Source: a bacterium (GTDB lineage Bacteria; Myxococcota_A; Bradymonadia; UBA7976; UBA1532). Taken from it: a DNA stretch of 64,000 nt. The DNA is taken from NCBI GenBank assembly GCA_030427205.1, contig JAUHXC010000011.1, positions 108,016-172,015 on the forward strand. The letters are read 5' to 3'. The notes below the pieces were generated by a model. That model had not been told where the DNA came from. It saw only the letters and a list, made by a program, of their open reading frames with translations, and ran no database searches. Both the position numbers and the translations under genes were made by a program. The first letter of the stretch is position 1. Each line of letters starts with the position of its first letter. Below are positions 39,954 to 49,124 of this stretch, piece by piece.

Positions 39954-40754
39954 GTGAAGCTGACCCACGCCCTGCTCTTGACCCTCGACGCCGAGACCAC
40001 CGGCCCCAAGCCGCTCGAAGACCGCATCGTCGAGCTCGGCGGGGCCTATCTGCAGGCGGGGGAGCAGATCGGCCCGATCCTGCGCACGATGGTCGACCCG
40101 GAGAAGTACATCCCCGCCGGCGCGACGGCGGTGCACGGCATCCGCACCGAAGACGTCGACGGCGCGCCCAAGTGGGCCGAGGTCGCCCCGCGCCTCGAGC
40201 AGCACTTCGCCGCCGGTCCGGTGGTGGTCGGCTACAACATCTTCGGCTTCGACAAGCCGCTCATCGACGCCGAGAACGCGCGGGTCGGCGTCGACTGGCA
40301 GGTGCCCGAGCCGCTCGATCCGTTCTTGTGGGCCTATTGGCACGACCGCGGCGAGTCGAGCCGCAAGCTGGGGCCCACCTGCGAGCGCTACGGGGTCGAG
40401 CTGCCCGAGAACCGGGCCCACACCGCCGACGCCGACGCCTACGCCACCGGGCTGTTGCTCACCAAGATGGTGCAGGAGGGGGTCATCCCCGACGACGTCG
40501 AGCAGGCGTTTCGCGAGCAGCGTTTGATCCAGGCCCACCTGAAGGCCGAGATGGCACGCTTCGGGCGCTTCCTCTATGTCGACCGCCACGACGGGGCGTA
40601 CAAGCTCGGCCTCGGCAAGCACATCGGCACGCCGCTCGACGAGGCCGACGAGGGCTACCTGCGCTGGATGCTCGGTCGCCCCGACCTGCCGCCCGAGGCG
40701 CGCACCCTGCTCTTGCAGCGCCTGGGGCAGGTCGAGCAGGTCACGCTCTTCTGA
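39954..40754 (+). CDS. DEDDh 3'-5' exonuclease (DnaQ-like) with C-terminal DUF3820-like domain
   Basis: LDAETTG, the VGYNIFGFDKPLID and HTADADAYATG motifs. GTG start. Confidence 0.8.
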   Translation: MKLTHALLLTLDAETTGPKPLEDRIVELGGAYLQAGEQIGPILRTMVDPEKYIPAGATAVHGIRTEDVDGAPKWAEVAPRLEQHFAAGPVVVGYNIFGFDKPLIDAENARVGVDWQVPEPLDPFLWAYWHDRGESSRKLGPTCERYGVELPENRAHTADADAYATGLLLTKMVQEGVIPDDVEQAFREQRLIQAHLKAEMARFGRFLYVDRHDGAYKLGLGKHIGTPLDEADEGYLRWMLGRPDLPPEARTLLLQRLGQVEQVTLF

Positions 40755-40827
40755 ATCTGTCTCGGCGCCGATCGGCGTCGACGGGCCGCCGGCCCCGCGG
40801 CATGATCCGACCGACGGAGGAGGAGCG

Positions 40828-42870
40828 ATGCGCCGTGCCATCCAGAGATCTCTCGCGCCACTGCTGATCGTCGCCCTGGCCGGCTGCACGCCGACCGGTG
40901 GCGGCGGGGACGAGGCGGACGCCCGCCCGGCCGACGACGCCGAGGCGGACGGCGCGCCGACCGACGCAGGCCCCGGTTCGGACGGGCAGGCTGCGGATGG
41001 ACAGCCCGCGGACGGACAGCCCGCGGATGGGCAGCCCGCGGACGGACAGCCCGCCGACGGCGAGCCGGCGCCCGACGCCTGCGTCGACTGCGGAGCCGCC
41101 CCGCGGGTGCTCACCTTCGACGCCAACGTGCGCGCGCTCACCGAAGGCGGCGAGATCCGGCTCTCGGCGGTGGTCACCGACCCCGACGGCGGCGCCGATC
41201 TGCTCGGCGGCGTGCTCGAAGACCCGTCCGGCGCGCCCTTCGGCCCGTTCGAGGCCGCCGGAGACGTCGGCACCTACGGCTTCACGCTCACCTGGGCCGC
41301 CCTGCACGCGATCGACCCGATCACGTTCGACGGCGAGGCCACCCGCGAGATCGTCGCCGCGTTCTTCGACCAGGCCGGCAACCGCACCGAGGCCCGGCTC
41401 GAGCTGACCCTGCACTGTCGTGACAATGGAGGCGCGGCCTGCGACGGGGTCTGCGTCTCGCTCGACTCGCAGGCGCACTGCGGGGCCTGCGACGCCGCCT
41501 GCGAGACCGAGTGCGTCGACCGGGCCTGCGCATGCCCCGGCGAAGACCAGATCCGCTGCGACGACGGGCGCTGCGTCGACACCCAGAACGACCCGGAGAA
41601 CTGCGGCGGCTGCGATCGTGCGTGCCCGGGCATCGCCGACGGCGAGGGGGCCTGCGTGCGCGGCCGCTGCCAGATCCAGTGCGCGCCGGACCATCAGCTG
41701 TGCGACCCCGACGACCTCGTCTGCGCCCCCTGCCCCGTCGACGGGGTGATCCGAACGGGCTGCGACGGCCGCCGCTGCGTCGCCGACACCTGCGCCGACG
41801 GCTTCCGGGTCTGCGATGGCCTCTGCGCCGCCTGCCCGCCCCAGGCCGAGCGCACGCTGTGCCTCGGCGATCGCTGCGTCGCCGCCGAGTGCGCCCGGGG
41901 GACCCACCCGTGCAGCGAAGGCTGCTGCCCCTGGCGGCCGCTGCTCGTCGGGCAGAGCCCCAACGACTTCGCGATGGTCGCGGCGGAGGGCGCCATGCAC
42001 TTCGCCATCGGCGAACCGGAGCGGGTCTTCGCCCGGCGGTGGGTCGAAGGGCGATGGAACGACGTCGTGGTCGCCGAGTTCGAGCGGGCCGGCCGCTCGT
42101 CGACGCGCGTCGCGCTCGCCGCCTCCAATGGCGTCGTGCACCTGGCCTACGCGGTCAACAGCGCGCCCGTCGACGGGCAGTTCCTGCTCGGCCACCACCG
42201 CTACGCCGACGGCCGCTGGGCCGAAGCGCATACGCTCGCCGACGAAGGCCTGGTCTTCGATCCGCTGTTGGCGGCGCGGGACGACGCGGTGTGGCTGATC
42301 TGGGACCAGCAGGGCCAGCAGCTCGTCGACCCGCGGGATGTCCCGTGGCGGCCCGAGTTGGTCCTCGACGGCGATGAAGCCGATGTCGCGCTCGGCGCCG
42401 ACGGGACCCTGCACGTCGTCGGCGAACGGCAGATCGGCAGCGGCCTGCTCTACGCGCAGCGCGGGCCCGACGGCGTGCTCTCGGACATCGACCCGGACAA
42501 TGGCCGCCTCGGCGAGGCCCAGCCCGACGTCGCGCTCGACGGCGACGGCCTGCCGGCCATCCTGCATCGCGAGGACTTCAACGGCGACCTCTACCTCACC
42601 CGCTTCGACGGCCGCGCGTGGGATACCCGCCAGATCCTGCGGGGCTACCAGACCGAAGAGGGGCTGGACATGATCCGCGGGGTCGACGGCGGGCTGATCA
42701 TCTGCGCGGGCACGCAGCTCGGGCTCTTCGTCTTCTTCGAAGACGGTCAGGATTGGCGGCCCGACGAGGTGGCCGACGGCTTCCACGCCAAGTGTCAGCT
42801 CGCGCTGGCCCCCGACGGCGGGCTGCACGTCATCAGCATCGGCGGCGGCGGCATCACCTGGTATCGCTGA
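40828..42870 (+). CDS. hypothetical lipoprotein with Cys-rich module and C-terminal beta-propeller-like region
   Basis: ATG follows a GGAGGAGGAG Shine-Dalgarno, and the lipobox is LAGC. There is a 6 x DGQPA tandem repeat. A ~30-Cys module (CDGVCV...CGACDAAC...CGGCDRAC) follows. The C-terminal half has repetitive DG..H/DG.L motifs. Confidence 0.65.
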   Translation: MRRAIQRSLAPLLIVALAGCTPTGGGGDEADARPADDAEADGAPTDAGPGSDGQAADGQPADGQPADGQPADGQPADGEPAPDACVDCGAAPRVLTFDANVRALTEGGEIRLSAVVTDPDGGADLLGGVLEDPSGAPFGPFEAAGDVGTYGFTLTWAALHAIDPITFDGEATREIVAAFFDQAGNRTEARLELTLHCRDNGGAACDGVCVSLDSQAHCGACDAACETECVDRACACPGEDQIRCDDGRCVDTQNDPENCGGCDRACPGIADGEGACVRGRCQIQCAPDHQLCDPDDLVCAPCPVDGVIRTGCDGRRCVADTCADGFRVCDGLCAACPPQAERTLCLGDRCVAAECARGTHPCSEGCCPWRPLLVGQSPNDFAMVAAEGAMHFAIGEPERVFARRWVEGRWNDVVVAEFERAGRSSTRVALAASNGVVHLAYAVNSAPVDGQFLLGHHRYADGRWAEAHTLADEGLVFDPLLAARDDAVWLIWDQQGQQLVDPRDVPWRPELVLDGDEADVALGADGTLHVVGERQIGSGLLYAQRGPDGVLSDIDPDNGRLGEAQPDVALDGDGLPAILHREDFNGDLYLTRFDGRAWDTRQILRGYQTEEGLDMIRGVDGGLIICAGTQLGLFVFFEDGQDWRPDEVADGFHAKCQLALAPDGGLHVISIGGGGITWYR

Positions 42871-42879
42871 GGCGGCGCG

Positions 42880-44514
42880 TCAGCGGCGGGTGACCGTCGC
42901 CGCCGCGTCCACCGCGACCTCGCCCTCGACGATGCCCACCGTCTGCGGGTCGTCGTCCCCCAGGAGATGGCGCCGGGCGAAGGCCAGCGCATAGACCTCC
43001 GAGATGCGGAAGCCGCGCTCTTTCTCCAGCGTGCCGCACAGCCCCAGACCGAACGTCTGGTGGCAGGCGCCGGCCACCTCGACCCACACCAGATCGAGCC
43101 CCTCGGCCCGGTCGAAGATCGCCTGCACATCGGGCTTCTCCGCGCCGGGCACCGACTGCATCTGCAGCGGCAGCTGCACCGCCCGCCAGCCGTCGGGGCC
43201 GAACCAGCCCTCGCGATAGCCGCCGTCCATGGCGATGCCCGCCACCACCCGCCCGTCGGCCAGGCCGCCTTCGAACGCCGCCCGCTCGCCGTCGCTCAAC
43301 TCGGGGTTCTCGGCGGCGATGACCGCGAGATCGAACGCCGCGCCCAGACCGGCCCACACCGTATACGTGCCGCGGCTGTGCCCCGAGAGGATCACCCGCT
43401 CGGTATCGGCCGCCGCGAGCGCATCGTCCGCCGGCAGCGCCGCCAGCGCGTCGAGGGTCGCGCTGATGTCCGCCGGCCGCTCGACGAAGTGCGCCACCAG
43501 CTCGCCGCGCGGGTTGTCGGTGAGCGTATTGCCCGCGTGGTCCGGCGCCACCGCCACCCAGCCGTGGGAGGCGAAGTGAGCCATCAGGTAGGCGCTGTTG
43601 CCGGCGAAGCCGCGGTCGCCGTGGCTGTGCACCAGCACCGGGTAAGACTCGCCGGCCGGCGGCCGGGCCGGCGCGTCGATCACGCTGTCGGGGTCGTCGA
43701 AGGCGTTCTCGAACCGCGGACGCGGCCCGTCGACCCGGCGCGCGGGGTACCACGCGTTGACGACGATCGTGCGCACCTCGCCGGTGCCGGGCACGACATA
43801 ATCCACCGGCCAGGTGCGATGCCCGACCGCGAAGGGCCCCGCGCCGTCCACCGGGAACTCGAGGGTCGAGGTGTAGACCGGCGCGGCGTCGGGCTGCATG
43901 TCCGCCTCGGCCACCCCCAGGTCGGGATCGACCGCGGCGTCGGGCTGCATGTCGGGCTCGGGCAGCGCGGCGTCGGGGCACTGCTCGTAGTCGTAGACGC
44001 TCACGCCGTCCGGGCACACCCACTCGCTGGGGTAGGTCTTGTTGTGCGCCACCACCCCCTCGGCGATCAGGGTGTGCAGCGGATGGGCGACGGTGATGTC
44101 GAAGACATCGGCCAGCCCGTCGAAGACCGCCGCCTCGTCGACCGAGCGCACAGCGAGCCCCTCGGGCTCGACGACGGCCAGCGTGGTGCGCGCGCCGAGC
44201 AGCCACTGCCCGGCGGGGGCGAAGACCGCGCGCTCGGGGCAGTAGAGCGGGTGGTCCGACGTGAGCCGCAGCCGTCGCCCGCCGACGCTCAACGCGCCGA
44301 CCTCCCGCCGGGCGCGGGCGATGGCGACCACCGCGGTGCGAAAGCGCTCGCCGGTCTGCGGGTCGACGGCCCAGACAGCATCGCCGACGGCCAGCTGCTC
44401 GATCGGCCGCGGGCCGTCGGGCGTCTCGACGCGGGTGCCGGCGGCGAAGCACGAATCGGTCGGGCAGCCGCTCAGGCCGATGCCGAGTGCGAGGGTGGTC
44501 AGTCGCCGCTTCAT
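42880..44514 (-). CDS. lipoprotein fusing a Hint (bacterial intein-like) domain to an alpha/beta hydrolase
   Basis: The lipobox is LSGC at C17. The Hint domain spans aa 22-158 (nt about 44041..44451). It has Cys1 CFAAGTRV, block B LTSDHPL and block G EGVVAHN. The +1 residue after HN is Lys. A downstream GHSRG nucleophile elbow and HGD region fit a dienelactone/PAF-AH-like hydrolase. Confidence 0.7.
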   Translation of the reverse strand: MKRRLTTLALGIGLSGCPTDSCFAAGTRVETPDGPRPIEQLAVGDAVWAVDPQTGERFRTAVVAIARARREVGALSVGGRRLRLTSDHPLYCPERAVFAPAGQWLLGARTTLAVVEPEGLAVRSVDEAAVFDGLADVFDITVAHPLHTLIAEGVVAHNKTYPSEWVCPDGVSVYDYEQCPDAALPEPDMQPDAAVDPDLGVAEADMQPDAAPVYTSTLEFPVDGAGPFAVGHRTWPVDYVVPGTGEVRTIVVNAWYPARRVDGPRPRFENAFDDPDSVIDAPARPPAGESYPVLVHSHGDRGFAGNSAYLMAHFASHGWVAVAPDHAGNTLTDNPRGELVAHFVERPADISATLDALAALPADDALAAADTERVILSGHSRGTYTVWAGLGAAFDLAVIAAENPELSDGERAAFEGGLADGRVVAGIAMDGGYREGWFGPDGWRAVQLPLQMQSVPGAEKPDVQAIFDRAEGLDLVWVEVAGACHQTFGLGLCGTLEKERGFRISEVYALAFARRHLLGDDDPQTVGIVEGEVAVDAAATVTRR

Positions 44515-44595
44515 GAGGACTCCCGGTGATGAGGCGCCCAGCGTCGGTCGTCGCCGGCCTCGATTTCAAGGCCGCCGCGCCTCAGCCGCAGCCCA

Positions 44596-45354
44596 TCAGC
44601 GGCAGCGCACGCCGTCCGGCGTCGGCAGCGTACGCGGCGCGCCGTCCAGCCCGCCGCGCTCGCGGGCCAGCGTCGCCCGCTCGTCGCTGCCCGGATGGGT
44701 CGACAGCATCGCCGGCACGCCGGGGCTCGACGCCGCCAGCCGATCGAAGAACGTCGCCATGCCCGCCGGGTCGATATTGGCCTTCACCAGCAGCGCGTGC
44801 CCCAGCGCGTCGGCCTCCGACTCCTGATCGCGGCTGTAGGCGTTGCCCGCCAGGCTCACCGCGATGCCGGTCATCGAGCCCAGGTCGACCGCGCCGAGCA
44901 CCGCGCCGATGGCCGCGAAGAGCCCCAGCTGGCCGGCGATGCGCCGCAGCCCGTGGCGCTCGGTGACGTGGTGGATCTCGTGGGCCAGCACCGCGGCGAC
45001 CTCCTCGCCGCTCTCGGCTTTCTCCAAGAGCCCGCTGTGCACCGCGATGAAGCCGCCCGGCAGCGCGAACGCGTTGACCTCGGGGGCGTCGATCACCGCG
45101 AAGGTGAACGTATGCTCGCCCTCGTAGGCCTCGACCAGCGGCGCGGCGACGGCCTGCACGTACGCCAGCGCCGCGGGGTCGGTGCAGCGCTTCTCGGCGG
45201 GCACCATCTGGTTCCAGGTGGCCTCGCCGATGGTCTGGTCGACGCTGATCGGCATCAGCCCGACGACCATGCTCGCCACCCCGCCGACCAGCGCGATGCC
45301 GCCCCAGACGAGCAGCACCAGCACCAGCAGCACGCCGCCGATCTCGAGGGCCAT
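44596..45354 (-). CDS. M48 family zinc metallopeptidase (HtpX/Ste24-like)
   Basis: The N-terminal TM helix, HEIHH, and downstream E (ESEADALG) are M48 features. The ATG is codon 73 of ORF 44596..45570. Confidence 0.8.
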   Translation of the reverse strand: MALEIGGVLLVLVLLVWGGIALVGGVASMVVGLMPISVDQTIGEATWNQMVPAEKRCTDPAALAYVQAVAAPLVEAYEGEHTFTFAVIDAPEVNAFALPGGFIAVHSGLLEKAESGEEVAAVLAHEIHHVTERHGLRRIAGQLGLFAAIGAVLGAVDLGSMTGIAVSLAGNAYSRDQESEADALGHALLVKANIDPAGMATFFDRLAASSPGVPAMLSTHPGSDERATLARERGGLDGAPRTLPTPDGVRCR

Positions 45355-45602
45355 GCGCTTTCTGGAGTGACCGAAGCCCTGCGGCGGCGGCCCGATGGGC
45401 GCGCCGGCTCTCGGGGCGTGGGGCGGCAGGCTGGCCGACGGATCGGCGCTCTTGAAGCTGCGGGACTCGTTCTTGGGGTCGCGGGGGCTCACGGGCGGCT
45501 CCGAAAAAACTGCGATCCAGGCTGGTGCAGATGATCGGCGGTTGCCAACGGCCGCGCAATCGGCTGTCATCGGCCCGCCGAAATCAATCCGTGGGGACGC
45601 GC

Positions 45603-46298
45603 GTGAAACACAGCATCGAATACGGCCCGGCGTTCGCCTGGCTGCGCATCCAACTCGATCCGGGCGAGGAGATCGAAGCCGAGGCGGGGGCCATGGTCAC
45701 CCGCAGCCCGGGGCTCGAGATGGAGACCCGGCTCAACGCCGGCAAGCGGGCGGGCTTCTTCCAGAAGTTCATCGCCTTCTTCGTCGCGCTCGTGCGCAAG
45801 TTCGCCGGCGGCGAGACGATGTTCGTCAACGACTTCAAGGGCCCGCAGGGCGGCGAGCTGGTGCTCGCGCCGGGGCTGTCGGGGCACATCGAACACCGGG
45901 CGCTCGCCACCGGCCAGGGCATCCTGGTGCAGAGCGGCAGCTACCTCGCAAGCTCCGAGCAGGTGGGCACGAAGCTCAAGTGGGCCGGCCTGCGCGGGCT
46001 CTTCGGCGGCGAAGGGCTCTTCTTCGTGCACTGCACCGGGCCCGGCGACCTCTTCCTCAACAGCTACGGCGGCATCACCGCGGTCGAGGTCGAGGGCAGC
46101 TACGTGGTCGATACGGGGCACATCGTCGCCTTCGACGAGACCCTCGACTTCGACATCAGCAGCGCGGGCAAGGGCTTCAAGGCGCTGTTTCTCAGCGGCG
46201 AAGGCCTCGTCTGCACCTTCAAGGGGCGGGGCACGGTCTACGTGCAATCGCGTAACGTCGGCGGGCTGGTCAGCTGGCTCAGCCCCTACCTGCGCTGA
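45603..46298 (+). CDS. TIGR00266/AIM24 family protein (DUF124), paralog 1
   Basis: The GAMV..S..LEM pattern, GGE..F.N.F, a Gly-rich core and VDTGHIVAFDE..DF are family hallmarks. The GTG start is codon 27 of ORF 45525..46298. Confidence 0.8.
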   Translation: MKHSIEYGPAFAWLRIQLDPGEEIEAEAGAMVTRSPGLEMETRLNAGKRAGFFQKFIAFFVALVRKFAGGETMFVNDFKGPQGGELVLAPGLSGHIEHRALATGQGILVQSGSYLASSEQVGTKLKWAGLRGLFGGEGLFFVHCTGPGDLFLNSYGGITAVEVEGSYVVDTGHIVAFDETLDFDISSAGKGFKALFLSGEGLVCTFKGRGTVYVQSRNVGGLVSWLSPYLR

Positions 46299-46310
46299 GG
46301 AGGCGGGCAG

Positions 46311-47003
46311 ATGGACATCGACATCGAGTACCGGCCGGCGCACAGCCTGGCCGTCGTGAAGCTGGCCCCCGGAGAGAGCATCACCGCCGAGTCGTCGGCG
46401 ATGGTGAGCATGTCGACGGGGCTCAACCTCACCACCGACGGGCCGATGAGCAAGAAGCGCGGCGGGTTCCTCAAGAACCTCGGCCGGGCCTTCCTCGGCG
46501 GTGAGACCTTCTTCACCAATACCTTCGAGGCGGCGCATACGCCCGGCGAGGTGACCCTGGCGCCGACGTTGTGCGGCGACATGGCGATCCACGCGCTCGA
46601 CGGCCGCGAGAAGCTCTACATCCAGGGCTCGAGCTTCGTCGCCGCGCCCGACAGCGTGCACCTCAATACCAAGTGGCAGGGCATGAAGGGCTTCTTCAGC
46701 GGGGAGAGCCTGTTCTTCCTCGAGGCCACCGGCCACGGCCCGGTGATCATCAACGCCTTCGGGGCCATCGACATCGTCGACCTCGACGGCGAGCTGATCG
46801 TCGACACCGGCCACCTCGTCGCCTTCACCGACGGCCTGCAATACGAGGTCAGCAAGGCCGGCTCGGGCTGGATCTCGAGCTACCTCAGCGGCGAGGGCTT
46901 CGTGCTGCGCATGCGCGGCACCGGCCGGCTCTACCTGCAGACCCGCAACCCCTCGGAATACGGCTCGGCGGTCGGCCCCAAGCTGCCGCCGCGCCAGGAG
47001 TAG
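46311..47003 (+). CDS. TIGR00266/AIM24 family protein (DUF124), paralog 2
   Basis: Same family hallmarks. It lies 12 nt after paralog 1. Confidence 0.85.
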   Translation: MDIDIEYRPAHSLAVVKLAPGESITAESSAMVSMSTGLNLTTDGPMSKKRGGFLKNLGRAFLGGETFFTNTFEAAHTPGEVTLAPTLCGDMAIHALDGREKLYIQGSSFVAAPDSVHLNTKWQGMKGFFSGESLFFLEATGHGPVIINAFGAIDIVDLDGELIVDTGHLVAFTDGLQYEVSKAGSGWISSYLSGEGFVLRMRGTGRLYLQTRNPSEYGSAVGPKLPPRQE

Positions 47004-47007
47004 AGCC

Positions 47008-47694
47008 ATGCAATACGAGATTCTCGACGCGCCCGACTTCGGGCTGTTGCGGGTGACCTTCGAGGCGGCCGGCGAGCACGTCGTGGCCGAGGCGGGGGCG
47101 ATGGTCTCGCGCAGCGCCGAGGTGGAGATGACCACCAACATGCGCGGCGGCCTCGGCGCGGCGCTCAAGCGGCGGGTGCTGGGCGGCGAGAGCATGTTCC
47201 AGAACACCTTCACCGCGACCGGGCCCGGGCAGCACGTCCTGCTCGCGCCGGGGCCCGAGGGCGACCTGACCCACGCCACCATCCCCAAGGGCGACGTGAT
47301 GTTCCTGCAGAGCGGGAACTACCTGGCCCACACCGGCGACATGCAGCTCGATACCAAGTGGGGCGGCGCCAAGTCGTTCTTCGGCGGGGTCGGCTTCTTC
47401 ATGCTCAAGTGCACCGGCCCCGGCGAGCTGTTCTTCAACAGCTACGGCGCGCTGCACGCCGTCGAGGTCGGCCCCGAGGGCTACACCGTCGATACGGGGC
47501 ACATCGTCGCCTTCACCGAAGGGCTCGACTTCAACATCCGCAAGTTCGGCGGGTTCAAGGGGCTCTTCTTCTCCGGCGAGGGGCTCATCGCCGAGTTCCG
47601 CGGCCAGGGCACCGTCTTCGTGCAGACCCGCAACGCGCCGGCGCTGGCCAACTTCCTCGAGCCCTACCGCCGGGTGCAACGCAACAGTAATTGA
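47008..47694 (+). CDS. TIGR00266/AIM24 family protein (DUF124), paralog 3
   Basis: Same family hallmarks. It lies 4 nt after paralog 2. Confidence 0.85.
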   Translation: MQYEILDAPDFGLLRVTFEAAGEHVVAEAGAMVSRSAEVEMTTNMRGGLGAALKRRVLGGESMFQNTFTATGPGQHVLLAPGPEGDLTHATIPKGDVMFLQSGNYLAHTGDMQLDTKWGGAKSFFGGVGFFMLKCTGPGELFFNSYGALHAVEVGPEGYTVDTGHIVAFTEGLDFNIRKFGGFKGLFFSGEGLIAEFRGQGTVFVQTRNAPALANFLEPYRRVQRNSN

Positions 47695-47786
47695 GCCCGC
47701 GACGGTGTCCCTCCACGGTTGCCCGTGAGGCGGTGATCGACCCGGTACGACCCGGGCTACGGTGAGCCGACCATGTGGAGGCAGCC

Positions 47787-49124
47787 GTGAGAGATCAGGA
47801 ATCCGCCCAGCGCGCGGCGGGCAGCGGCGACGCGCTCGCCGTCGAACCCCAGAAGACCGGCCCGGGCAGCGACCTGTCCCAGCGGGCGCAATCCGCCGAG
47901 CTCAACGGCCAGTCGGGGCCGCTGTCGGCGCTCGGGGCCTGGGCCGGCGAGTTGAAGCAGACGGGCCTGGGCCGATGGTTCATGCGCCGCGTCACCTCCT
48001 ACGACGAGCGCCTCGCCGACGTCGACATGGGCGCCGACGACGCTCACGTCCCCCGACAGGCCTTCGCCGAGGCGATGAACATCCTCGCCGGCGGCGAGCC
48101 GGGCACCGCGGCGAAGTTGAAGAACCCCGACAAGCCGGTGAGCCGGGCCGAAGCGGTCACCCTCGCCCAGCGCTATCACGGCTACGACGAGGCCCTGCCC
48201 GAAGGCGAGGTGGCCTACTTCCTCGACGTGCCCGAGTCGGCCTGGTTCTTCGGCGCGGCCCACGCCGCCCGCCGCAACGGGGTCATCAAGGGCAACAACA
48301 ACTTCTTCCGCCCGCACGATCCGCTGCCGTGGGGCCACGCGCAGTACATCTTCGAAGCGTTGGAGTCGCCGGGGCCCGTCGCGCCCGCCGAGCAATGCCC
48401 CGACGCCGAGGTGCTGCTCGAACCGGCCGACGTGACCCAGCGGCTGGGGGCCGAGGGCATGCTCTCGCCGGCGGCGATCGCCGAGATCCGGGCGATGATC
48501 GCCGAGATGCCCGCCGAGCAGCAGGGGGCGCTGTACCAACAGCTGGCCTCGAAGGTGAGCTACCGCTCGCAGCGGGACAACGTGGGGACCAGCAACGTCC
48601 CAGCCGACTGGATGTGCGGGGTGACCTCGATCGCCATGGCGCTCAACGGCTTGGGCATCACTGCAGACGAGAGCAACGCCCAGTTCGAAGACCAGCTCCT
48701 GCCGATCGCTCAAAAGGGCGGAGGCTACCTCAACGAGAGCGGACATCGCGCGGCGGCCAATGCGCACGGGGCCAGCCTGAAGCGCATCTGGACCGACTTC
48801 ACCGACGCGACGGGTGCGAAGCGCTTCTACACCGAGAAGGTCCAACCGCTGCTCGAACAGGGCCAGACCGCCGTCCTGAGCATCGTGACCAAGGACACCC
48901 CGAACGGACACATCGTTCGACTGGAGTGGGTCGAGGCCGAGGGTCTGCGCATCGATGATCCATATGGCGCTTTGAAGGGCACCAGCCGCTACACGGGGAA
49001 CGAGACCACGAATTCGACGGGTGATGGCGCGCGCGGCGAAGACAACGTGTGGTCGTGGGAGTGGATCGCCCGGTTCAATGGGTCCCAGCTCGGACGCTAC
49101 GTCGAAGTACTCGACCACAAGTAG
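47787..49124 (+). CDS. hypothetical protein with SLH-like domain and C-terminal C39-like (papain-fold) peptidase domain
   Basis: GTG follows a GGAGG Shine-Dalgarno; an alternative GTG lies at 47775. The SLH-like stretch is FLDVPESAWFFGAAHAARRNGVIKGNNNFFRPHDPLPWGHAQYIF. The peptidase region has WMCGVTSIAMALNGLG (catalytic Cys) and a downstream NGHIVRLEW (His). There is no signal peptide. G/C at third positions falls to about 76% in the last ~500 nt, and the stop is TAG. Confidence 0.55.
   Translation: MRDQESAQRAAGSGDALAVEPQKTGPGSDLSQRAQSAELNGQSGPLSALGAWAGELKQTGLGRWFMRRVTSYDERLADVDMGADDAHVPRQAFAEAMNILAGGEPGTAAKLKNPDKPVSRAEAVTLAQRYHGYDEALPEGEVAYFLDVPESAWFFGAAHAARRNGVIKGNNNFFRPHDPLPWGHAQYIFEALESPGPVAPAEQCPDAEVLLEPADVTQRLGAEGMLSPAAIAEIRAMIAEMPAEQQGALYQQLASKVSYRSQRDNVGTSNVPADWMCGVTSIAMALNGLGITADESNAQFEDQLLPIAQKGGGYLNESGHRAAANAHGASLKRIWTDFTDATGAKRFYTEKVQPLLEQGQTAVLSIVTKDTPNGHIVRLEWVEAEGLRIDDPYGALKGTSRYTGNETTNSTGDGARGEDNVWSWEWIARFNGSQLGRYVEVLDHK

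Follow-up and report, generated by a model that had tools for sequence, protein, structure and literature searches.

A lipoprotein esterase fused to a lipobox-adjacent Hint domain from a large Myxococcota family with an invariant +1 lysine

A complete Hint domain directly behind a lipobox

The gene described here lies in a 64,000-nucleotide stretch (the window) of contig JAUHXC010000011.1 from a Bradymonadia assembly (GCA_030427205.1) and encodes a 544-amino-acid (aa) protein in which a predicted lipoprotein signal peptide is followed, after a four-residue spacer, by a Hint domain and then by an alpha/beta-hydrolase of the esterase/lipase type. The Hint domain turned out to be part of a large, Myxococcota-centered family that carries this domain just behind the lipobox and an invariant lysine just after it. 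We lean toward the view that it would act in the manner of a bacterial intein-like (BIL) domain, cutting itself after export and so freeing the esterase from its lipid anchor.

Fold, motifs, and profile matches all place the domain in the HINT superfamily. Residues 22 to 158 (137 aa; 44041..44451, with all features of this gene given on the minus strand) form a BIL-like mini-intein that exceeds the gathering cutoff of Pfam Hint_2 (35.1 versus 28.4 bits), and residues 136 to 158 exceed that of the NCBIfam model TIGR01443, intein_Cterm (17.7 versus 15.6 bits). In a search of PDB sequences, the top match was a "bacterial intein-like domain" (2lwy; E, 4e-8), and Mtu RecA mini-inteins aligned end to end with residues 22 to 158. 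Given 82 aligned relatives, AlphaFold2 (AF2) modeled residues 21 to 160 as all beta, at a predicted local distance difference test (pLDDT) score of >95. A Foldseek comparison of this model with the PDB gave as best matches the BIL domain of C. thermocellum (2lwy), Tetrahymena BIL2, and the NpuDnaB, SspDnaB, and Mtu RecA mini-inteins (template modeling scores of 0.81 to 0.84, target normalized; root mean square deviations of 1.8 to 2.8 A), with the Hedgehog domain 1at0 ranking lower. The Hint and esterase domains were modeled separately; a combined MAFFT alignment (A5) left zero rows over residues 22 to 159.

A first-pass annotation, made from the nucleotide sequence and its translations, had placed Cys1 at residue 22 (CFAAGTRV), 5 residues past the lipobox cysteine (Cys17), block B at LTSDHPL (TxxH), and the C-terminal block at VVAHN, followed by a lysine at the +1 position. 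Each of these elements was found where it had been proposed: C22 is Cys1, T85 and H88 make up block B, and H157 and N158 make up block G, with D139 and H147 (VFD139ITV) in block F between them and K159 (44038..44040) at +1. The annotation's call of a Hint domain held up as well, the fold being recovered over the whole of residues 22 to 158, and the catalytic residues are intact; its view of the domain as BIL-like rather than an intein is likewise supported, since the +1 lysine is nonnucleophilic.

Upstream of the Hint domain, the signal peptide (residues 1 to 17, MKRRLTTLALGIGLSGC17; 44464..44514), recognized from the sequence and alignments, consists of a basic n-region (MKRR), a hydrophobic core (LTTLALGIG), and a canonical lipobox (L14-S15-G16-C17). 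It fits the lipobox pattern that we applied, [LVI][ASTVI][GAS]C, and lipidation of the protein is predicted on that basis. C17 is invariant in an alignment of the Hint family (A4) and at least 90% conserved among orthologs of the esterase (alignment A7). The spacer P18-T19-D20-S21 (44452..44463) would represent, apart from the lipidated cysteine, the whole N-extein.

The gene itself (42880..44514 in the list of open reading frames, including the stop codon at 42880-42882) appears sound. Its GC content at third codon positions (GC3) is 0.94, typical for genuine genes of this 73% GC window, a Shine-Dalgarno-like GGGAG (44520..44524, from the sequence) lies 6 nucleotides 5' of the ATG, and an identical fusion protein is already on record at NCBI (P0001), on a 276-kb contig.

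The module belongs to a widespread lipobox-Hint family

A HMMER search with residues 18 to 185 returned 4229 representative proteins (clusters at 50% identity) at an E value of <1e-3, with 547 below 1e-10; family features are described from the best 150 of these 4229 representatives. In most of the 150, the Hint domain starts at residue 17 to 30 of the protein, directly past the lipobox, as illustrated by the junctions LSGC-WTTS-CVARG, LGAC-TS-CVARG, and ASC-CVARG. The lipobox cysteine mostly precedes Cys1 by 1 to 8 residues, with no residue between the two ("CC") in about 14 of 80 cases, and about 131 of at least 190 members with a complete N-terminus have a hydrophobic leader with a cysteine no more than 12 residues from Cys1. 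A few members have a transmembrane (TM)-like leader that lacks the lipobox cysteine, which supports a shared theme of a membrane anchor directly N-terminal to the Hint domain. Judging from these sequences, the family layout would be a lipobox, 0 to 8 residues, the Hint domain, HN-Lys, and a hypervariable tail.

Conservation within the family is centered on the active site. The lipobox cysteine, C22, T85, H88, D139, H147, H157, N158, and the +1 lysine are invariant or nearly so in alignments of 26, 34, and 83 members, and that the catalytic positions among them (C22, T85, H88, D139, H157, and N158) are (near-)invariant in sets of 26 to 150 relatives points to selection on the chemistry. K159 is invariant in three alignments (A3, 34 sequences; A4, 26 sequences; A6, 83 sequences) and at least 90% conserved in a fourth (A2, 150 sequences). 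These figures were taken from the alignments; counts of the +1 residue by permissive regular expressions were unreliable and were not used.

What follows the Hint domain is far more variable. While the Hint parts were similar in 98.8% of pairs (median identity, 45%), the tails were similar in only 2.9%, and tail length ranges from 4 to 694 aa, with a median of 86 aa. After HN-Lys, members typically continue with S/T-P and a six-cysteine mini-domain of about 40 aa; six cysteines were counted in 67 of 151 family tails. The window protein retains just the first hairpin of this mini-domain, in a segment (TYPSEWVC167PDGVSVYDYEQC179, residues 160 to 179; 43978..44037) delimited by the family alignment and the AF2 model: the family pattern C..DG..V.(E/D)Y..C reads C..DG..V.DYEQC here, and AF2 predicts a beta-hairpin at residues 164 to 166 and 172 to 174 (pLDDT, about 80). 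Among 34 longer members, Pfam recognized no known cargo domain in the tail. Eight proteins of the 26-member alignment A4 (P0077, P0079, P0086, P0105, P0125, P0132, P0133, and P0186) share a C-terminal D-[AG]-G-P right past the six-cysteine mini-domain, an ending that could direct sorting or processing but might also be a coincidence of low-complexity sequence or reflect gene calls that are truncated.

Members come overwhelmingly from metagenome-assembled genomes (MAGs) of Myxococcota (Myxococcaceae, Archangium, Bradymonadaceae, Nannocystaceae, Sandaracinaceae, and Polyangia), with one from an isolate, Polyangium sp. y55x31 (L045). Genomes were scanned for members with the pattern VHNK, which in the window protein reads AHNK. 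The proteins are named just "Hint domain-containing protein" or "hypothetical"; neither a dedicated model in Pfam or NCBIfam nor, in the literature searched, a description of a lipobox-adjacent Hint family was found. Among 79 family loci, no neighboring gene cluster recurred in more than 10. The first-pass annotation had treated the window protein as a singular design, a view that has to be given up for its N-terminal module, which comes from this large family; it is only the fusion to an esterase that is confined to this genome.

Several Myxococcota and Bradymonadales genomes carry two or three lipobox-Hint genes in tandem (L004, L008, L012, L021, and L036), and several MAGs hold members on separate contigs; together, the tandem copies and the several copies per MAG argue for a paralogous, diversifying family. 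A related arrangement was seen in an uncultured deltaproteobacterium MAG (CAVQSS010000025.1; L054:5401-7000) and in L080, where Hint domains of the same clade stand back to back with HN-KGGG-C linkers only. These arrays comprise at least three Hint domains in tandem, with up to seven matched stretches in proteins such as P0137, and their final part is a Ser/Gly tract plus a TM helix at the C-terminus; a class related to them starts with a signal peptide followed by ARGGGGC. The closest relative of the window Hint domain by word-index search was P0062 (L003), a protein of 244 aa with 47% identity, in which lipobox, Hint domain, and HNK are followed by a Ser/Gly/Thr/Asp-rich tail. Its gene is followed by a small gene (L003:1189-1443) matching Pfam Unstab_antitox (PF09720).

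The esterase and its Hint-less relatives

The first-pass annotation had recognized the downstream part of the protein as a serine alpha/beta-hydrolase with a GHSRG motif, an assignment supported by the fold, the nucleophile elbow, and the Pfam matches. Residues 216 to 544 (42883..43869) match Chlorophyllase and PAF-AH_p_II in Pfam, and the AF2 model of this domain (pLDDT, >90) has as best Foldseek matches human Lp-PLA2/PAF-AH, a Streptomyces feruloyl esterase, and PETase/cutinases, in agreement with a profile search against the PDB. An alignment of esterase orthologs (A7) shows the HG oxyanion motif (H298-G299), G378-H-S380-x-G382, H485, and C493 to be invariant, C484 to be nearly invariant, and D458, the probable catalytic acid, to be at least 90% conserved. 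From strand order, S380 (the nucleophile of GHSRG; codon at 43375-43377), D458, and H485 probably make up the Ser-Asp-His triad, and the conserved pair C484/C493 would fit an extracytoplasmic enzyme. Enzymes of the Lp-PLA2/PAF-acetylhydrolase, chlorophyllase, and cutinase/PETase types share the fold, the GxSxG elbow, the HG motif, and a disulfide near the catalytic histidine; however, identity to them is just 14 to 19%, and the window enzyme belongs to a separate clade of lipoprotein esterases that bear the annotation "predicted dienelactone hydrolase."

Among 5.8 billion proteins, a search with the full protein retrieved the identical entry and 60 relatives (325 to 723 aa) that cover the esterase part only, such that the Hint-esterase fusion was found once. 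All 60 relatives are Hint-less lipoproteins in which the signal peptide and lipobox cysteine are followed directly by a PDAA-type linker. Given that none of the 60 has a Hint domain, we regard the window gene as the product of a one-off swap of the N-terminal module.

Comparison with the nearest relative (P0002; 82% identical as a protein) indicates how this swap might have come about. Its locus (L001) has 77% DNA identity to the window over 43902..41033 only, a stretch that starts in the linker, takes in the esterase, and extends into the convergent gene, which encodes a Cys-rich protein, while the signal peptide, the Hint domain, and the upstream gene all differ. Because homology begins only in the linker, we interpret the event as replacement of the N-terminal module rather than precise insertion. 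The donor was probably a signal-lipobox-Hint-Cys-hairpin module of the Myxococcota family described above, and, as deduced from the alignments, the joint would lie at residue 179|180, the donor part ending at Cys179. The acidic, PDAA-rich linker that follows (residues 180 to 215; 43870..43977), delimited by repeat analysis and by the linkers of orthologs, contains the DMQPDAA repeat noticed in the first-pass annotation; at the DNA level, this repeat was borne out as a tandem 17-codon duplication with 45-nucleotide direct repeats (43882-43926 and 43933-43977) at a 51-nucleotide spacing, the upstream copy of which starts at codon 180. This arrangement is consistent with recombination within low-complexity linker DNA as the origin of the fusion.

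Since codon bias is the same on either side of the joint (GC3 of 0.95 in the Hint segment and 0.94 in the esterase segment), we ruled out base composition as an argument for a foreign origin of the Hint domain. A tblastn search of the window for a second Hint copy gave the self match only, and no signature of a mobile element was seen near the fusion gene, its neighbors in the window being ordinary chromosomal genes (three AIM24, RNase T-like, and GNAT).

Neighboring genes

According to the first-pass annotation, a gene encoding an M48 metalloprotease follows immediately downstream. In fact, this gene (BepA/LoiP-like; 44596-45570, minus strand; Pfam Peptidase_M48, 3e-31; partial NCBIfam matches) is located 81 nucleotides upstream of the esterase gene on the same strand, and, as a search of the gap gave no terminator, the two might be cotranscribed. 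We rejected the M48 protein as a functional partner: its gene is absent beside three esterase orthologs (L001, L083, and L084) and from all 79 Hint-family loci, and, as the pairing is not conserved, it was not counted in the system. In L001, its place is taken by a gene (L001:2-304) whose product ends in Gly-Cys-x-Cys ... LLALLGLVGLRRR, resembling a MYXO-CTERM sorting signal; this difference indicates that close relatives differ by a rearrangement 5' of the esterase gene. A PT-HINT protein encoded near the ortholog in L084 was discarded, as it proved to be an unrelated fragment of the toxin type with HN-D at its end.

On the other side lies the convergent gene (40576-42870, plus strand; 764 aa), also adjacent to the esterase gene in L001. 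Its product is secreted and rich in cysteine, carries a (DGQPA)n repeat, and has a cysteine-rich region resembling MXAN_6577 (NCBIfam, 3.6e-9, below the cutoff); along with the 73% GC content and the Myxococcota relatives, this neighbor supports placing the window in Myxococcota. Divergent from the M48 gene are three tandem paralogous genes of the AIM24 family (45525-47694, plus strand; 257, 230, and 228 aa; Pfam PF01987, E values from 1e-58 to 7.5e-62), and further along lies a gene (47775-49124, plus strand) for a 449-aa protein that combines an S-layer homology (SLH) motif with a Peptidase_C39-like domain, an unusual pair for a high-GC Gram-negative bacterium.

Release from the anchor and alternative fates

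When a BIL or Hint domain has no nucleophile at +1, the products that form are mostly those of N- and C-cleavage (PMC7664689, PMC7765530), and this published behavior makes release from the anchor the most reasonable mechanism for the window protein. Moreover, A-type BIL domains cleave via their C-terminal asparagine (PMC7765530), and HINT is a recognized releasing peptidase of secreted polymorphic toxins (PMC3482391). We infer export, lipidation, the cleavage chemistry, and its outcome to run as follows. The precursor would be exported (Sec) and lipidated, which would leave a mature N-terminus of lipid-Cys17-PTDS, followed by the Hint domain and the esterase. In the periplasm or at the outer membrane, the Hint domain would fold and promote an N-to-S acyl shift at the Ser21-Cys22 bond; hydrolysis of the thioester would then detach Hint domain and esterase together from the lipid anchor. 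Separately or additionally, cyclization of Asn158 might remove the Hint domain, after which the esterase would start with Lys159. By either cut, a membrane-anchored esterase would become soluble and secretable. We hold, with moderate confidence, that autocleavage of this BIL type after export would free the esterase.

Several points nevertheless weigh against release. It does not, in its simple form, account for the invariant +1 lysine, and many family members offer as "cargo" only a tail of 30 to 90 aa, a small Cys-rich peptide. Cys1 could be trapped in a disulfide in the oxidizing periplasm. A fusion found as a singleton may have arisen recently and bring little adaptive benefit and might even, though this is unlikely, be an assembly chimera at the low-complexity linker. 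As for autocatalytic cleavage itself, what the sequences show, in this protein and in the family, is conservation of the catalytic residues.

The lysine in particular makes room for another outcome, in which the Hint domain excises itself and its flanks are religated: an amine of Lys159 would attack the Ser21-Cys22 thioester, the Hint domain would leave, and the esterase would stay on the lipopeptide, either through an isopeptide bond (epsilon-amine) or through a peptide bond (alpha-amine, freed by Asn158 cyclization). In that case, maturation would yield a lipoprotein, as in the orthologs, all of which are predicted to be lipid anchored, so that an anchored product would keep the ancestral localization; the excised Hint domain would be a by-product, either short-lived or with a function of its own. 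K159 is invariant in the family, as the +1 nucleophile is in true inteins, and Tetrahymena BIL2, a top structural match, splices via a lysine of its C-extein to form an isopeptide (PMC8616854); for these reasons, the earlier statement in the first-pass annotation that protein splicing is impossible was too strong. In the text of PMC7664689 that refers to it (as reference 16), the C. thermocellum BIL domain is also cited for ligation without nucleophilic side chains. On the other hand, BIL domains mainly cleave (PMC7664689), and religation would have little evident purpose in the few members with TM-type leaders or with R/K-GGG(G) linkers between tandem Hint domains. We consider it a serious but clearly less likely rival. 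We deem it quite unlikely that the Hint domain is functionally irrelevant, i.e., a recent neutral accident, inactive in the oxidizing periplasm, or an assembly artifact in what is otherwise an ordinary lipoprotein esterase. The uniqueness of the fusion and the position of its joint within low-complexity, repeated DNA would agree with such irrelevance, but the frame is intact, codon bias is uniform across the joint, every catalytic residue has been kept, and the gene has a proper Shine-Dalgarno sequence and start codon and is represented by a protein on record from a 276-kb contig.

A transfer in trans, with the Hint thioester handing the lipidated Cys-peptide to a lysine of an external protein, a lipid head group, or a cell wall amine, would turn the family into a single-turnover lipopeptide transferase, similar to Hedgehog cholesterolysis or BUBL conjugation. 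The family-wide distance of 0 to 8 residues between lipobox cysteine and Cys1, suggestive of tight coupling of lipid and active site, is compatible with this idea, and Hint thioesters are resolved by nonwater nucleophiles in Hedgehog and BUBL proteins (PMC7664689, PMC8616854). Still, it is purely speculative and we consider it very improbable, as there is no sterol- or substrate-recognition region past the Hint domain, no conserved partner gene in the 79 loci, and a set of members with leaders other than a lipobox. Taking the lysine-dependent outcomes together, lipobox-Hint-HN-Lys proteins might form a new reaction class of Hint domains, in which the +1 lysine or an external amine attacks the thioester that bears the lipidated Cys-peptide, a proposal for which we see only a slim chance. 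If true, it would yield either an isopeptide "reanchored" lipoprotein or lipopeptide transfer onto another molecule; both would amount to Hedgehog/BUBL-like, ATP-independent lipidation chemistry in bacteria, with the esterase fusion as its natural reporter. The least credible scenario, to which we assign hardly any weight, is that of a canonical mobile intein whose splicing would reconstitute a conserved host protein. Intein-like blocks A, B, F, and G are present and family members match intein models, but the +1 residue is a lysine, an endonuclease is lacking, the domain is found at the very start of a protein that is exported, and there is no conserved extein junction, the whole N-terminal region being different in the orthologs.

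Significance

As Hint/BIL self-processing is already known, the novelty lies in the lipobox-Hint-HN-Lys architecture as a family and not in Hint chemistry, and a self-releasing anchor, our default reading, is an extension of known biology. If the module does cut itself, it would provide a built-in, enzyme-independent conversion of lipoproteins to soluble secreted proteins, which would bear on the delivery of exoenzymes and small Cys-rich proteins by myxobacteria and could serve engineering as a compact "anchor, then release" tag. Should the invariant lysine prove catalytic, Hint chemistry would be extended to lysine-directed ligation in bacteria. We expect the family and its lysine to be of note to specialists in inteins or lipoprotein sorting, and the esterase fusion, as the only member found with an easily assayed cargo, is the most convenient experimental entry to it.

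Comparison with known systems

The window Hint domain has the traits of an A-type BIL or PT-HINT domain, a likeness drawn from motifs and nearest matches. A-type BIL domains, reportedly the subject of Amitai et al. in 2003 and Dassa et al. in 2004, have in common with it a mini-Hint of about 137 aa with Cys1, a block B TxxH, a C-terminal His-Asn, and no Cys, Ser, or Thr at +1, as well as an occurrence in variable regions of exported, nonconserved proteins with hypervariable flanks; by both sequence and fold, the C. thermocellum BIL domain 2lwy is the closest match. Unlike A-type BIL domains, which are embedded in large surface proteins, the members of the window family sit 0 to 8 residues past a lipobox, have an invariant +1 lysine followed by a conserved Cys-rich mini-domain, and are centered in Myxococcota. 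PT-HINT (PF07591) likewise combines a Hint domain with a variable C-terminal module downstream in secreted proteins, for which autoproteolytic release has been inferred (Zhang et al. 2012, PMC3482391). The fusion protein gave no match to PF07591 at E values up to 0.1; 23 of 34 scanned family members did match (best E, 3.7e-13). In contrast to PT-HINT proteins, the window protein has only a lipobox in place of N-terminal repeats or trafficking domains, and there is neither a toxin domain nor an immunity gene, the cargo being a housekeeping-type esterase with stand-alone orthologs and the next gene being convergent.

With BIL2 of the Tetrahymena BUBL protein (6tmm/6y75), the window domain shares the fold, and the BIL2 thioester is resolved by a lysine of the C-extein to form an isopeptide (PMC8616854). 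This sets a precedent for a catalytic +1 lysine, although the BUBL lysine is not documented as the +1 residue; furthermore, BUBL BIL2 is eukaryotic, is flanked by ubiquitin-like domains, and has just 19% sequence identity to the window domain. The Hedgehog Hog domain, finally, has the Hint fold (1at0) in common with the window domain, as well as its occurrence in an exported protein and a lipid on the N-terminal product. It differs in that the window Hint domain lacks a sterol-recognition region and ends in HN, which Hog does not have, followed by the Cys hairpin and linker, and in that the lipid of the window protein would originate from the Lgt/Lsp pathway instead of the Hint reaction.

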